DNA of 44,632 bases, from NCBI GenBank assembly GCA_031490075.1, contig GCA_031490075.1_4354.1; one strand, 5' to 3'. Shown piece by piece: positions 3,360 to 42,672 of this stretch. Below the pieces are notes generated by a model that did no database searches, was not told the origin of the DNA, and worked only from the letters and a program-made list of their open reading frames with translations. The stretch's first letter is position 1, and the number at the start of each line of letters is the position of its first letter. The DNA is from a phage. The translations under genes were made by a program, and so were the position numbers.

Positions 3360-3384
3360 TCCTCTGTCTCGTTCCGATAAGTGA

Positions 3385-3413
3385 ATAGTATCCTATTATG
3401 TTGGGGTGTGCAA
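3385..3413 (-). promoter_or_regulatory. Sigma70-like promoter with embedded palindrome (TTGCAC-N17-TACTAT on minus strand)
   Basis: Read on the minus strand: TTGCAC, 17-bp spacer, TACTAT; AATAG-N4-CTATT at 3384-3397. The flanking sequence is closely similar to the promoter at 2286-2314. Confidence 0.6.
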
Positions 3414-7168: not shown

Positions 7169-7198
7169 GTCAATTACTCCTTAGTCAGTTGATATGTG

Positions 7199-7228
7199 AA
7201 TAGTACCATATTAATTATTTTAGAAAAG
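7199..7228 (-). promoter_or_regulatory. Putative promoter of the XRE regulator gene with imperfect palindrome
   Basis: Minus-strand -10 TACTAT with weak -35; imperfect site AATAG-N4-ATATT at 7199-7212. Confidence 0.35.
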
Positions 7229-7232
7229 CCCA

Positions 7233-7261
7233 TTGACATGTGAATAGTTCGCTATTATAGT
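7233..7261 (+). promoter_or_regulatory. Sigma70-like promoter with embedded palindrome (TTGACA-N17-TATAGT)
   Basis: TTGACA, 17-bp spacer, TATAGT; spacer contains AATAG-N4-CTATT (7243-7256). Confidence 0.65.
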
Positions 7262-16508: not shown

Positions 16509-16514
16509 AGAAAA

Positions 16515-26884: not shown

Positions 26885-26913
26885 TTGCACACCCCAATAT
26901 AATAGGGTACTAT
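26885..26913 (+). promoter_or_regulatory. Sigma70-like promoter with embedded palindrome (TTGCAC-N17-TACTAT)
   Basis: TTGCAC, 17-bp spacer, TACTAT; AATAG-N4-CTATT at 26901-26914; GGAGGGG SD follows. Confidence 0.65.
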
Positions 26914-26943
26914 TCACTTACACCAACAATGGAGGGGTTTAAA

Positions 26944-35685: not shown

Positions 35686-35949
35686 CTATTCCAGAATATT
35701 CCTCACGTAATCCTGCAACATGAACACTTTCAGCCGCAGCTGCCGTACGCATTCAGCATTCTGAACGTCGACGGCCAAATCCTCATCAGCGTCGCTACTT
35801 GGCTGCGCCAGTTTGCACGGCGGCTGCATCATCGTCGTATCCGGGGATGGAATTGGCGTTGGCGACGGCGCGGGACTTGAGCTGCACGCGCTCAGGGTCA
35901 AAAGTGCACACGCTGCGACCAGGCGTTTTAATGTACTTAACGACTTCAC
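35686..35949 (-). CDS. Outer-membrane spanin component (Rz1-like lipoprotein)
   Basis: Signal peptide ending in the lipobox LSAC, then a Pro-rich segment; starts inside the Rz-like gene in a different frame. Confidence 0.5.
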   Translation of the reverse strand: MKSLSTLKRLVAACALLTLSACSSSPAPSPTPIPSPDTTMMQPPCKLAQPSSDADEDLAVDVQNAECVRQLRLKVFMLQDYVRNILE

Positions 35950-36181
35950 GGGTAATCACCTCTGATTTCGTCTTGCCTTCGTTGTCAGCGGCGGCGGCCT
36001 TCGATTCATCCTGCTGCTGCCGTTGTGTTTTCTTCGCTAACTCAGCCTGTGCTTTCTGCTGTTGCTGCGAAACGAGATTAGCCCGGCCTTCGTTCCATCC
36101 GCTGCGATACTGGTAGATGCCGTGTGCGTAAACCAGGATGATGAAACATGCTCCTGCTACGACAGTTGCTTTAAGATTCAT
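35795..36181 (-). CDS. Inner-membrane spanin component (Rz-like)
   Basis: N-terminal transmembrane helix followed by a Gln/Ala/Lys-rich coiled coil; contains the lipoprotein ORF. Confidence 0.55.
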   Translation of the reverse strand: MNLKATVVAGACFIILVYAHGIYQYRSGWNEGRANLVSQQQQKAQAELAKKTQRQQQDESKAAAADNEGKTKSEVITREVVKYIKTPGRSVCTFDPERVQLKSRAVANANSIPGYDDDAAAVQTGAAK

Positions 36182-36291
36182 GTTTCCCCTTTCTCGATAA
36201 GTAAAGCCCCGCCATAAAGCGGGGCGCTAGTCCTTATCATTTAAACATAGAAACGGCGTAATCTCAGTAAACCAGTTACTTTTTACACAAG

Positions 36292-36500: not shown

Positions 36501-36529
36501 TTGCGCACCCCGATATAATAGGGTACTAT
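36501..36529 (+). promoter_or_regulatory. Sigma70-like promoter with embedded palindrome (TTGCGC-N17-TACTAT)
   Basis: TTGCGC, 17-bp spacer, TACTAT; AATAG-N4-CTATT at 36517-36530; GAGGAGG SD follows. Confidence 0.65.
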
Positions 36530-36556
36530 TCATTCTATCGAACCGAGGAGGCCGCC

Positions 36557-36637
36557 ATGTTAGTCGTTATTTCAGTAGTAATTGCAGTTGATGCGGTGAT
36601 GTTTCTTTGGGCTTGTAGTGGTATTGGTGAACTATGA
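36557..36637 (+). CDS. Small hydrophobic peptide (26 aa)
   Basis: Strong SD; stop overlaps the lipoprotein start. Confidence 0.3.
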   Translation: MLVVISVVIAVDAVMFLWACSGIGEL

Positions 36638-36978
36638 AATATATTAAATTAGCAGTAGCGGGTGTTGTAGCCGTCTGTTTGAGTGGTTGCGTAAGGTCGT
36701 TGCCAGACCCAGCTTTACAGGTTTATCAGGCAGGGGATACAACGGCAACATGTAATCAGTTACTATCGAGAATCGCCACGACAAAACAAGCTCAAGCCAA
36801 CGCTACGCACCGTGTTAATAAGCAAATAGGTACTAACGTTGTACTCGGTGTTACAGGCGCATTCCTGATTGTTCCGCTGTTCTTTATGGACACGGGCGCC
36901 GGGCCTTCTATGGACGAGATGACAGCCGGTAATCGTCTGTCGCAGTTACAACAAACATACGACGAGAAATGCAAATGA
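36634..36978 (+). CDS. Lipoprotein with additional hydrophobic segment
   Basis: Signal peptide with lipobox LSGC; later hydrophobic stretch VVLGVTGAFLIVPLFF; plus strand inside the minus-strand head module. Confidence 0.65.
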   Translation: MKYIKLAVAGVVAVCLSGCVRSLPDPALQVYQAGDTTATCNQLLSRIATTKQAQANATHRVNKQIGTNVVLGVTGAFLIVPLFFMDTGAGPSMDEMTAGNRLSQLQQTYDEKCK

Positions 36979-37051
36979 CAAATAGTGTGATGTTTTATGT
37001 TGTTTTGTTGGTATCGGCTGCGGTTATCACCGCGATGTTCATACAAAAATA

Positions 37052-37073
37052 AAGCCCCGTAAGGGGCTTTTTA
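37052..37073 (+). terminator. Rho-independent terminator
   Basis: AGCCCC-GTAA-GGGGCT followed by TTTTT. Confidence 0.6.
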
Positions 37074-37096
37074 TCATTCCGGCTTTTTATCATTCC
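37065..37096. repeat. Tandem duplication of a 16-bp unit (GGCTTTTTATCATTCC x2)
   Basis: Two identical adjacent copies; the first overlaps the terminator stem and the second reaches the stop codon region of the minus gene 37090..37551. Confidence 0.7.
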
Positions 37097-37551
37097 GGCT
37101 TAGTAACCTTCGCCGCTTTACTGACGGCCTCTACCCCATCGGCATCAGTAACTTTAACGAAGCATTCGCTGACCGCATTAACCGTCAGAGACAGAGCCTC
37201 CTCAGGCACATTCACCACTTCCTTACCGTCTTTGTACCAGGTCAGAGAATACGGCGCTTTGCCTGCCTTAACCTCGACAGTGATGGTTGCGCTGCCGCCC
37301 GCCAGTTCAGCGTCCTGCGGTTGCGCAGAGAAATACACGTCGCCAGCGTCCGCCAGATACGGAATTTCATAAAGCATACCGGCGGCGGGCAACGCAATAC
37401 CGGTTTTATCTGCAAACGGCATATCATCTACCGGTGTACCGAGTACACTTTCGTCCCCAATAAATACCACGTTCTCGCCAGAGCCAGACACGCGGGCGTA
37501 CTGGACTACGCGACGAGACGGTACGTCAGTTACTTTGAAAAAGCCCATCAT
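37090..37551 (-). CDS. Hypothetical protein with C-terminal Ig-like region
   Basis: APYSLTWYKDGKEV resembles Ig-like repeats; downstream of the head morphogenesis gene. Confidence 0.45.
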   Translation of the reverse strand: MMGFFKVTDVPSRRVVQYARVSGSGENVVFIGDESVLGTPVDDMPFADKTGIALPAAGMLYEIPYLADAGDVYFSAQPQDAELAGGSATITVEVKAGKAPYSLTWYKDGKEVVNVPEEALSLTVNAVSECFVKVTDADGVEAVSKAAKVTKPE

Positions 37552-38594
37552 TATTCCCCTTTCAGATAATCAGCAACACGTTTATCGAGTTCCGCCATCT
37601 GCTTAAGCGTGAGCGGATTCCCGAAACCATCTACAGATATTACGCGAAACTCTTCCGGCGATATACCGCTGTTACGGAAAATCTTACCTCGCACCGGGCC
37701 GAGCGCCTGGTCCTGAAACCACGCCGGTTGTTGTTTAAGGAACTCATAATAGGTGGTATCTGCGCTTACCTGAGTACCTCCGTCCGCACCCTTAGCCGCG
37801 CGTTTTGCACCTTTATCGAGGAAGTCGAACCCCGAACTGATTACTGGCGCAGTAGTACTCCGGCAATTCGGATGTGCTGGCGGCATCGGCCCCTTACCGA
37901 TTTCCCACGTCATTCCGTCTCGGGCCCTGCAAATCGTACTGGTGCGGCTATCCAGCGTTGACACCCACTCGTACTTCTCGATGATGTCGTCGTTCTGGCG
38001 GTACGTCTCGTTACGGGCTTCGTTGGATACATGCGACAGCGCAGTGCGGATTACTGTAGCCGCATATTTCTCAGACACGTCAGCAAGCCCACCCTTACCT
38101 ACTACTTCTTTAACAATCTGCTGTGTAGTCTTGCCCTGAACAAAGCCCATCTTAACGCCAGTTACCAGGCGCGCGACTTCTGTTTCACCCCAACCTGACA
38201 TCAGCTTGGTGAAATCGACGGGCTTGTCACTCAATGATAGTGGCTGAAACTCGGCAGCGGCCCACACCTGTTCTGCGGTAGGCGTAACAAATTCCGCGTT
38301 AACGTTGGCGGTAAGTGTCTTTACGTTCCACTCTGCTTCATACGCCGCCAGTTCCTTAAGGTCTTCTGTCAGCTTTGTCTGCCAGTCACCTGTAAGTCCG
38401 GTTAGTGCTTCTTCGAGGTCGCGTAACAGTTTATTCAGCCGCGCGGTGCTTCGCCCGTCGTCGCCGAATAACAGCACCTGCCGTTTGATTTCGTCCCGCA
38501 TTTCCTGAATGAACGGTGCTAGGTCTTTCACTTCACCAGATGCGGTGCGTTGCAGCCAAATCTGGTGGCTGATTAGTGATGTCAGTAAGCTCAT
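37551..38594 (-). CDS. Head morphogenesis protein (Mu F / SPP1 gp7 family)
   Basis: WVSTLDSRTSTICRARDGMTW...PPAHPNCRST is the characteristic conserved region of this family. Confidence 0.85.
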   Translation of the reverse strand: MSLLTSLISHQIWLQRTASGEVKDLAPFIQEMRDEIKRQVLLFGDDGRSTARLNKLLRDLEEALTGLTGDWQTKLTEDLKELAAYEAEWNVKTLTANVNAEFVTPTAEQVWAAAEFQPLSLSDKPVDFTKLMSGWGETEVARLVTGVKMGFVQGKTTQQIVKEVVGKGGLADVSEKYAATVIRTALSHVSNEARNETYRQNDDIIEKYEWVSTLDSRTSTICRARDGMTWEIGKGPMPPAHPNCRSTTAPVISSGFDFLDKGAKRAAKGADGGTQVSADTTYYEFLKQQPAWFQDQALGPVRGKIFRNSGISPEEFRVISVDGFGNPLTLKQMAELDKRVADYLKGE

Positions 38595-39420: not shown

Positions 39421-40889
39421 TACTCCTGTTGTTGCGCGGACTGCGGAATTTCTCCTGCTACCTGAGCAACCGCACCCAACGGCAGCGGTGCGTCCCCAAT
39501 AGCGTTCTGAATGTCCTCATCGGTCCAGTCGGTTACGCCAGCCTTACGCAACGCGGCGTAGTAAGCAGTAGCCGGTAGCAGGCCAGCGTTAATGTCCACC
39601 ATCCACTGAGCGCGGTCCTGAGCTGTCATCGGTTGCAGGAAGAACTCCATGTTCAGCTTGAATTCAATCTCTGTGTCTTCGCGCAACCCTAGCATCGCCG
39701 CTACCCAGCGCAATGCCTCGGTATACGCCATACTTACGTTACGTGCGATTGTCGCCATAACAGACGTATCCGCGCCACGTTGCAGGCGGGCGGATTCGGC
39801 GGTGATTTGCTGCGTCGGGGTGATAAGCTGCGCACCAATCTGAATGGCCTGATTCTCTTTATCCAGCATATTCTGTTTGGCGAGGTTGTTCTCTCCTGCC
39901 TGAACAAGAAATGCATTGCCGCCGTAACCGATGTTATGGCCCGAACGCGACCCCATGCGCACGCCGTGAGGGTTGGCTTCTTTCCACTGTTCCATGCTCA
40001 TGTTCTCGCCAGGGGCGATGAACAGAGTAGGCTGGCCCACAACGAAGCTGGATTCCTCGTTGTCCGCGCTGTTGCGGAAATGCCCGATATTAAGCTCAGC
40101 TAACGGCAGCAAAGGTGCATCATCAATGGTCACATCGTTGTTGCTTGCCCCAATGAACGTGAACGGGATTTTGCCCCGTAACTGTTCGCCAAGTTCCGGG
40201 AATATTTCGATTACATCATCCTGAGCGCCACCTTCGGCATCGAAGCGATAGATTCGCTGGCGGTAGCGCCCGTCAATCAAATCGAGAACGCGGTATTGTT
40301 CACCGAACTTTGTTTCGAACTCAGCGCCTGGTTCCGAGTATTCCCACACCTCACGTAACACGACCATCGTCACACGGTTCACTGAGCCGATGCGGGTCAG
40401 TCGCCAGTTGATGATGTTCTCAGCAGTGTAGAATGCAATGACCGGGTTTAGTAACCCCGCGTTCTGTTCGGCTGCCGTTGCCGCGGCTGTCTCCGGGGCG
40501 TCCACCAGCAACCCGCCACGACCCACCGAATCAATCTCCATTAGCGTATCCTGTGCGTGCTGCCACAGCCCGACACCAGAACCGTCCGCGTTACGTAACA
40601 GGTACTCCAGTTCAGGCGGTATAATCTGCTCGGGGTCTTTGTGCATGACACTGCCGACCATCCCCACCAGCGTGCGTTTGGTGAAATTGTAACAGATAGC
40701 GCCGTTCTCGTATTCTTCCTGGCGCTGTGCCGCGTAGGTCGGGTCCGGCTCATTCTTCCCAACGTTGCGCAGATAGCGGATAAGGTCGCCTTCCAGCGCG
40801 TGGCGCACCTTCTGCCATTTATCGAAGTGATGCAGCCATTCCCGGTGTTTTGTCTTAACACCCTGATTCTGACCGTTCATAGTTAACAT
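39420..40889 (-). CDS. Portal protein
   Basis: 489-aa protein immediately after the large terminase gene; size and position. Confidence 0.75.
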   Translation of the reverse strand: MLTMNGQNQGVKTKHREWLHHFDKWQKVRHALEGDLIRYLRNVGKNEPDPTYAAQRQEEYENGAICYNFTKRTLVGMVGSVMHKDPEQIIPPELEYLLRNADGSGVGLWQHAQDTLMEIDSVGRGGLLVDAPETAAATAAEQNAGLLNPVIAFYTAENIINWRLTRIGSVNRVTMVVLREVWEYSEPGAEFETKFGEQYRVLDLIDGRYRQRIYRFDAEGGAQDDVIEIFPELGEQLRGKIPFTFIGASNNDVTIDDAPLLPLAELNIGHFRNSADNEESSFVVGQPTLFIAPGENMSMEQWKEANPHGVRMGSRSGHNIGYGGNAFLVQAGENNLAKQNMLDKENQAIQIGAQLITPTQQITAESARLQRGADTSVMATIARNVSMAYTEALRWVAAMLGLREDTEIEFKLNMEFFLQPMTAQDRAQWMVDINAGLLPATAYYAALRKAGVTDWTDEDIQNAIGDAPLPLGAVAQVAGEIPQSAQQQE

Positions 40890-42173: not shown

Positions 42174-42672
42174 CGGACACCACCTTAATTGTTACTTCGC
42201 TGATTGGCTCGTCGCGTACTTCTTCGGCGACAACTGTTTTATTCAGGCCCAGTTTCGCGGCAGCAAACGTAGCAGAGATGCCCGCGGCCCCCGTTTCAGT
42301 GAAGTATGCCTCTTCCAGCGCCTGTGCTGTCTCCCAGGCTTCTGCAAATGCGGGAATCTCACGCAGCCAAAGCTTAATAATAGGGATAGTGACGCCGATG
42401 TGTAAGGCGAAGCGGGCCAGTGACGGGGGTTTATCCTGAATCAGCGGGCGTTCGTCACCCTTAGACGTAGGCACAAGCTCCCACGACGTGCGGTCGAAGA
42501 ACTCGATTAGTGCATCGCAATAGCCCGGGTCCCACAACGCGGCGGAATTACGGGATGATTGATAAAGGCTCTGTTTACCGCGCGGTCGTTTACGGCGACG
42601 GTTTGCGCTAACAGCTTCTTCATGTGCAGCTTGTACCACCTCTGGCGATGGCTGCTTAAGTTTCAGCTTCAT
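42163..42672 (-). CDS. Putative terminase small subunit
   Basis: Overlaps the start of the large terminase gene; basic N-terminal region; ATG 42672 with GGGGA SD (the longest ORF extends to 42711). Call is by position only. Confidence 0.45.
   Translation of the reverse strand: MKLKLKQPSPEVVQAAHEEAVSANRRRKRPRGKQSLYQSSRNSAALWDPGYCDALIEFFDRTSWELVPTSKGDERPLIQDKPPSLARFALHIGVTIPIIKLWLREIPAFAEAWETAQALEEAYFTETGAAGISATFAAAKLGLNKTVVAEEVRDEPISEVTIKVVSGER

Follow-up and report, generated by a model that had tools for sequence, protein, structure and literature searches.

The window, by which is meant the whole stretch of DNA analysed here (44,632 bases), belongs to a Kagunavirus (Guernseyvirinae), a siphovirus of Escherichia coli. 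Its right half (24.6 kb) aligns over 80% of its length with vB_EcoS-22664BS2 (22664BS2 below) at 96% identity, and a local segment of 1.2 kb is 94.5% identical to phiEc4. A prophage or host origin was considered and rejected, since nothing matching the region is found in 5,426 complete E. coli genomes and the repeat junction has no match in GTDB genomes. The region harbors a short series of plus-strand genes converging on a minus-strand gene, with a predicted terminator and a 16-bp tandem duplication between them, and its features are the following:

36501 to 36532, plus strand: conserved promoter-like motif, …CCCGATATAATAGGGTACTATTC, at the left boundary of the exchangeable cassette.
36557 to 36637, plus strand: first cassette gene, a 26-residue hydrophobic peptide, coupled by an ATGA overlap to the lipoprotein gene.
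36634 to 36978, plus strand: middle gene, a 114-residue predicted lipoprotein (signal ...VCLSGC, lipobox LSGC; phrog_13472, E = 1.2e-44).
36975 to 37052, plus strand: last cassette gene, a 25-residue hydrophobic peptide, MTNSVMFYVVLLVSAAVITAMFIQK, found by direct reading and kept in nine relatives.
37051 to 37070, both strands: predicted bidirectional intrinsic terminator, AAAGCCCC / GTAA loop / GGGGCTTT, from a terminator scan.
37065 to 37080: copy 1 of GGCTTTTTATCATTCC, made up of the last 6 nt of the terminator stem 3' arm, the T-run and a 'ghost' repeat of the 7 nt that end the Hoc-like gene.
37081 to 37096: copy 2 of GGCTTTTTATCATTCC, with the functional TGA stop (37090-37092, minus strand) followed by an in-frame TAA, and the last Glu codon.
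37097 to 37101: partial third copy, GGCTT, in the Pro-Lys codons of the Hoc-like gene.
37090 to 37551, minus strand: gene of a Hoc-like head-decoration protein, 153 residues with an Ig-like domain (phrog_3945, E = 2.5e-83).

The three plus-strand genes are joined by ATGA overlaps and form a cassette that converges on the Hoc-like gene, the lipoprotein being placed between two tiny hydrophobic peptides. The 114-residue lipoprotein has no match in Pfam, and phrog_13472 is a family of unknown function; by its context only, it would be a candidate moron for superinfection exclusion or envelope modification. No family match was obtained for the 25-residue peptide, which ends in a TAA stop (37050-37052) sharing 2 nt with the start of the terminator stem. 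On the other side of the terminator, the Hoc-like protein gives a weak Pfam match to Ig_3, and the gene located upstream of it (37551-38594) is of the Mu-F/SPP1 gp7 head-morphogenesis type. To the left of the cassette, an embedded pair of spanin genes lies on the minus strand (35686-36181) and comprises a 128-residue Rz-like i-spanin (35795-36181) and, in another frame, an 87-residue ORF with a lipoprotein signal (35686-35949), in agreement with the spanin annotations of relatives.

The cassette occupies a slot between the spanin and Hoc-like genes (36533-37050) that is hypervariable, as it accommodates at least 12 unrelated cassettes among 48 sequences (loci L005-L049). Every one of them lies between the conserved promoter-like motif and the conserved terminator, with boundaries at 36532 and at about 37051-37081, an arrangement from which the slot reads as a moron-type exchangeable module. 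The slot of 22664BS2, the closest relative genome-wide, holds a different cassette, with a 67-residue ORF. The motif at the left boundary recurs in the window with 87-94% identity at 26885-26916 on the plus strand and at 3382-3413, 2281-2303, 7197-7213 and 7241-7259 on the minus strand, and its equivalent in fBC-Eco01 has been annotated as 'phage promoter2' from a PHIRE prediction. This recurrent CCCGATATAATAGGGTACTATTC motif probably marks a set of phage promoters.

The right end of the slot is formed by the hairpin at 37051-37070, which the terminator scan calls on both strands, with eight pairs (five of them G-C) and a 4-nt loop. It sits between the convergent genes with T-runs on either side, the downstream tails being TTTTTAT on the plus strand and ATTTTTGTAT on the minus strand, and the equivalent site in phage fBC-Eco01 is annotated as a terminator on both strands from an ARNold prediction. 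This hairpin recurs ahead of the Hoc-like stop in 48 sequences, made up of the window, 11 loci from GenBank phages and 36 from IMG/VR, although their 300 nt upstream of the hairpin sort into 12 clusters with no relation to one another. Across the 31 distinct hairpin versions in this set, 95.6% of the cells are paired and the five G-C pairs of the stem are invariant; the sixth pair is G-C in 21 versions, A-U in 6 and a mismatched intermediate in the other 4. The loop has no fixed sequence (GTAA, ATAGC, TTAAC, GAAA, TTTC and others). Covariation support for the hairpin is modest, coming from one pair only, and its conservation behind unrelated cassettes, together with the free variation of the loop, fits the predicted terminator. 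Hairpins of the form AGGCCCC-loop-GGGGCCT are also present at 16514, 29348 and 39396 (and at 36206-36225), and look like a terminator type shared throughout the phage; among them, only the one at 37052 has the A-T variant of the sixth pair. A known RNA family at the repeat was rejected, as Rfam gave no family match anywhere in the window.

The sequence GGCTTTTTATCATTCC is present twice, exactly and without any intervening base, at 37065-37080 and 37081-37096, as found both by direct reading and by Tandem Repeats Finder, so that the layout across 37060-37110 is ...AAAGCCCCGTAAGGGGCTTTTTATCATTCC / GGCTTTTTATCATTCC / GGCTTAGTAACC... The program reports 37065-37101 with a period of 16, 2.3 copies and 100% matches, and the score of 74 is its highest in the 44,632-base window. 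There are 21 consecutive matches at an offset of 16, the match extending to 37101. An exhaustive scan of the window found no second case in which a unit longer than 8 bases is fully and exactly duplicated in tandem, none with a period of 16 or more arose in 300 first-order Markov simulations, and calculation gives an expected number of about 1e-8 for 21 matches at a single offset. Chance is thus very far from accounting for the exact repeat of 2.3 copies. Nothing resembling GGCTTTTTATCATTCC occurs elsewhere in the window when up to three mismatches are allowed, and the two other tandem repeats reported by the program are imperfect (39796-39832, period 18, 2.0 copies, 84% matches; 42573-42602, period 15, 1.9 copies, 86% matches).

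The exact 16-bp tandem duplication at 37065-37096 that had originally been proposed from the sequence is confirmed by these readings, as is the statement that the copies span the downstream half of the terminator stem and the T-run: copy 1 begins within the stem 3' arm, with GGC at 37065-37067, and includes the T-run. The repeat had also been described as running up to the stop-codon region of the gene at 37090..37551, which is correct as to the location but needs amending in one respect, because copy 2 actually contains the stop codon. Besides the Glu codon, it takes in a single nucleotide of the Pro codon, so that the last four coding nucleotides of the Hoc-like gene fall within copy 2. The partial third copy, GGCTT, corresponds to the downstream member of the 5-bp microhomology that bounds the unit in single-copy relatives.

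The distribution of the duplication was examined with a query of 90 nt across its junction, which matched 147 GenBank phage records. Both copies were aligned in only two of them, phiEc4 (MZ576218) and K-02 (PQ436005), whereas the remaining 145 align from the second copy onward and are single-copy. The 37 IMG/VR relatives with a readable site are all single-copy as well, and a degenerate pattern of the junction had no matches in IMG/VR, JGI metagenome contigs or GTDB genomes. Direct inspection found a single copy in BUCT823, phiSD1, SZH-1, HSE2, SCS44, Golestan, fBC-Eco01, Bas70 and 22664BS2, and the same holds for a different Kagunavirus that is 88-95% identical here and has another cassette (L028, IMGVR_UViG_3300045988_026856). 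In all 45 single-copy sequences examined, the spacing between the hairpin and the stop is otherwise without indels. In phiEc4 and K-02 the flanks differ by 3-8% from those of the window and the two copies differ from each other by one base (…TTCT on the gene side versus …TTCC), a C/T difference at the synonymous third position of a Pro codon.

The closest single-copy relatives read GGCTT, 11 nt, GGCTT, i.e. a 5-bp direct repeat at a spacing of 16 nt. BUCT823, phiSD1, SZH-1 and HSE2, which have the same cassette in the single-copy form, read GGGGCTTTTTATCATTCCGGCTTA with this 5-nt repeat at an offset of 16; in full, the reading is GGGGCTTTTTATCATTCCGGCTTA, with the same stem variant as the window. 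Most other relatives read GGGGCCTTTT..., with a repeat of 3 nt only, and none of them is duplicated. The length of the repeat depends on the stem: the majority variant, GGGGCCTT, leaves 3 nt of it, and the variant with an A-U sixth pair (GGGGCT) therefore creates the longer GGCTT microhomology. Possession of the longer repeat is not always accompanied by duplication, as five relatives (L006, L014, L022, L030 and L033) have the 5-nt repeat at an offset of 16 and yet are single-copy.

The reading that we consider likely is that the 16-bp duplication is genuine and heritable, and that it arose from misalignment at this 5-bp microhomology, either by replication slippage or by an equivalent short-homology unequal exchange. 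The proposed model starts from the single-copy arrangement, in which one GGCTT would be placed in the 3' arm of the hairpin and the other among the final codons of the Hoc-like gene, at a distance of 16 nt downstream. If a nascent strand extended past the second GGCTT re-paired with the first, the 16 nt would be copied again. The neighbouring hairpin-forming palindrome probably promotes the stalling and dissociation of the polymerase, and slippage at a single-stranded template bearing a hairpin is described for archaeal replicative polymerases in vitro (PMC4134008). Copies that abut head to tail, a single-copy allele in relatives and a flanking direct repeat of matching spacing, which characterize slipped-strand events, are all found at this site. 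The repeat, its rarity, the microhomology and the unchanged protein and terminator context are observed directly; slippage, the role given in it to the hairpin, the effect on termination and the near-neutrality of the repeat are what we infer.

That such length changes do occur here is indicated by a second one in the same genome. The cassette of the window has a unique in-frame deletion of 21 bp (junction 36624/36625) between TGGTGA repeats, and the missing sequence, TGGTGACATTGACACGGGTAA, is present in all nine relatives with the cassette, so that the first cassette peptide has 33 residues in 9 of 9 relatives versus 26 in the window. This deletion of seven codons is microhomology-mediated as well, a mirror-image product of the same kind of misalignment. 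A mobile-element footprint or target-site duplication was rejected as the source of the 16-bp repeat, given that the copies abut and that there is no copy at the left cassette boundary (36532).

The original prediction had named slippage as its first option for the repeat, and the single-copy relatives, together with the GGCTT repeat exactly 16 nt apart, speak for that view. Its proposal that relatives be compared for single versus double copy has a clear outcome, since nearly all are single-copy and only phiEc4 and K-02 share the duplication. Its description of the event as recent requires a qualifier, because both of these phages also carry the duplication, with flanks 3-8% apart and copies differing in one base; for this reason, the duplication is either not very young or arose more than once. 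The haplotypes around the site bear on this choice. The loop of the window is GTAA, and its 55 nt beginning with copy 2 (37081-37135) are those of the single-copy phages BUCT823, phiSD1 and HSE2. Conversely, phiEc4 and K-02 have the loop ATAGC, as in the single-copy BUCT823, phiSD1 and HSE2, with a different right flank. As the flank haplotypes differ, at least two events are needed, i.e. two gains, a gain and a loss, or a gain and a recombination. A single event followed by clonal descent does not explain this distribution, which appears to require recurrence, reversion or recombination; the flank SNP patterns are finely mosaic, and single and multiple origins are alike compatible with them.

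The consequences of the duplication for the genes at its sides seem to be limited. The boundaries of the repeat lie outside the coding sequence or in synonymous register with it, by which the Hoc-like protein would be left unchanged, and its C-terminus (...KVTKPE*) is indeed identical with one or two copies, the gene ending in both cases in ...AAG CCG GAA TGA TAA. Each terminator keeps its hairpin and U-run unaltered, together with 16 nt after the U-run on the plus strand and 16 nt before the hairpin on the minus strand. When RNA with one and with two copies was folded on both strands, the 8-bp terminator hairpin was retained in the minimum free energy and centroid structures, with the exception of the one-copy minus-strand centroid, which has seven pairs in a slightly shifted register. 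The only extra fold due to the duplication is a weak 4-bp CCGG/CCGG stem, and a second terminator or alternative hairpin provided by copy 2 was rejected, because this stem has a 12-nt loop and is without a U-run. The idea that the doubled TATCAT/TGATAAAAA motifs had given rise to a new promoter was rejected likewise, the consensus scan calling none on either strand at 37060-37100.

The sole molecular change is therefore the distance from the Hoc-like stop to the hairpin, which goes from 3 nt in the single-copy form to 19 nt in the duplicated one; the Hoc-like transcript would have a 3' UTR that is 16 nt longer. In E. coli reporters, termination at tR2 is almost fully repressed when the terminator is located a few bp past a stop codon, reaches efficiencies of 0.12-0.8 at 17-18 bp from the stop, and attains its maximum of about 0.9 beyond 30 bp, an effect that has been ascribed to occlusion of the hairpin by the ribosome (PMC4824070). 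With a spacing of 19 nt, the terminating ribosome is predicted to occlude the 5' arm of the hairpin to a lesser extent, and minus-strand termination to be somewhat higher. Since the distance to the stop codon affects the efficiency of tR2 (PMC4824070), the duplication could raise minus-strand termination modestly, and this is the only functional effect that seems plausible by analogy. The second option of the original prediction, a duplicated terminator tail that tunes termination or the 3' end of the converging gene, would be a hypothetical role of this kind.

A minus-strand ORF of 32 residues (36995-37093), starting at the ATG of an ATGA overlap within the repeat, was treated as spurious. 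The same antisense ORF appears in K-02 (L002, PQ436005) as a 'hypothetical protein' of 100 residues (1814-2116 of the locus, minus strand). It crosses the terminator and lies antisense to the lipoprotein gene, and its length differs between the window and K-02, its frame being set, as read from the sequences, by the loop length and the copy number. Because this length is not conserved, the ORF is probably a spurious gene call.

The duplication is most likely a near-neutral or slightly deleterious, tolerated polymorphism rather than a designed element, given that the compact form is kept by about 185 relatives, against only three genomes with the duplication, although its persistence across a flank divergence of 3-8% could hint at tolerance or even benefit. 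With just one or two copies among these relatives, a position in the 3' UTR and an unchanged protein, the repeat does not have the character of a contingency locus.

Other explanations of the repeat have to be weighed against misalignment within one genome. A sequencing or assembly error, which would concern the window only, could be favoured by the GC-rich hairpin and the homopolymer run adjoining the site, as both raise error rates on some platforms. Nevertheless, the 37-nt repeat is far shorter than any read, assemblers do not create such repeats, the microhomology predicts the very register in which the exact copies lie, and the identical structure exists in the records of phiEc4 and K-02, two phages that diverge in the flanks both from the window and from one another; an assembly artefact thus seems unlikely, and an error of either kind hardly credible. 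It could also be argued that the repeat is a recombination scar, left by an out-of-register crossover between the terminators of two co-infecting Kagunaviruses and not by slippage within a genome. Its position is suggestive in that sense, being exactly at the right-hand mosaic boundary of the promoter-cassette-terminator module, where one and the same terminator follows at least 12 different cassettes, and the similarity to 22664BS2 and Bas70, the closest relatives genome-wide, ends at 36532 and restarts at 37081. Moreover, in phiEc4 and K-02 the cassette-side copy ends in ...TTCC, which is the BUCT823 type, and the gene-side copy in ...TTCT, as in most Hoc-gene sides, and their right flank has two or three of the variant positions of SZH-1 and fBC-Eco01, differences that would be expected if the copies came from two parents. 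In the window, however, the copies are identical and the right flank is that of the single-copy BUCT823 type with the same cassette, so that a second parent is unnecessary, and the C/T site is a synonymous third position that varies freely (C, T, G and A are all seen), which makes a later substitution an equally good account. As a crossover would need the same 5-bp microhomology and differs from slippage only in involving two DNA molecules instead of one, it was kept as a separate reading, and a rather unlikely one.

An adaptive role has been considered too, in which the spacer was retained because the change from 3 to 19 nt relieves ribosome occlusion and tightens termination of the minus-strand portal/head-morphogenesis/Hoc transcript, with less antisense transcription into the lipoprotein cassette. 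This change falls on the steep part of the distance-efficiency curve measured in E. coli (PMC4824070), the three duplicated genomes all have the same lipoprotein cassette, and the presence of the duplication on two flanking haplotypes could mean recurrence or retention. The association with the cassette is nonetheless accounted for by mutational opportunity, as the GGCTT microhomology is found in all three carriers; the 3-nt spacing is kept in 9 of the 12 genomes with this cassette and in all other relatives examined, by which the compact form seems favoured; and tighter termination might be costly, given that minus-strand genes further downstream (spanins, scaffold, capsid) might need read-through. 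Selection for the spacer is accordingly regarded as improbable. A further elaboration, for which the likelihood is put marginally lower still, proposes a ribosome-gated terminator: the 3-nt spacing, shared by nearly every Kagunavirus examined, would let translated head-gene transcripts read through to the spanin, scaffold and capsid genes, and the duplication would act as a recurrent, selectable one-step uncoupling switch that tightens termination and shields the lipoprotein cassette from antisense transcription.

On balance, the sequence comparisons present the duplication as genuine, and as an indel polymorphism of an ordinary kind, mediated by microhomology and located at the conserved bidirectional terminator of this Kagunavirus. 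It has little importance beyond bookkeeping, but it provides a clean natural example of slippage by microhomology plus a hairpin, with the one-copy and two-copy alleles both available in sequenced phages. These alleles also constitute a natural pair with stop-to-hairpin distances of 3 and 19 nt, usable for studying the effects of stop proximity on an intrinsic terminator in a phage. Finally, it is a warning for annotation, in that spurious antisense ORFs can be called from the ATG that the ATGA overlap places within the repeat, as exemplified by K-02.

Several known systems resemble the one described here. In the moron concept of Hendrix and Juhala, and in the PeSL cassettes of T4-type phages, exchangeable genes are bracketed by conserved regulatory sequences. 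The terminator carrying the duplication is similarly the conserved right end of a hypervariable slot with at least 12 cassettes, the difference being that the duplication is a small indel at the boundary and apparently not part of the machinery of cassette exchange. Bidirectional intrinsic (Rho-independent) terminators between convergent genes are pervasive in bacteria and phages, and the present one shares with them a GC-rich 8-bp stem, a 4-nt loop, an A-tract upstream and a T-tract downstream, in addition to the convergent genes at its sides. It differs in being very compact, as the plus-strand stop overlaps the stem by 2 nt and the minus-strand stop is, in nearly all of the relatives, 3 nt away. 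In ribosome-repressed terminators (Li et al. 2015, NAR 44:2554, PMC4824070), the variable is the same, i.e. the distance from the stop to the hairpin, the measurements having been made with lambda tR2 in reporter plasmids, from which the direction and size of the effect at the present site would be extrapolated. It is this compact layout that the duplication loosens, and it does so on one side only.

Slipped-strand mispairing of the Streisinger type underlies rearrangements between short direct repeats in E. coli lacI and ampC and in phage T4 rII. The likeness to these cases lies in the exact head-to-tail copies, the unit bounded by GGCTT, the nearby palindrome and the companion deletion at TGGTGA. 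Nothing essential separates the present duplication from them, except for its unusual landing place between a stop codon and a terminator, neither of which has been damaged.
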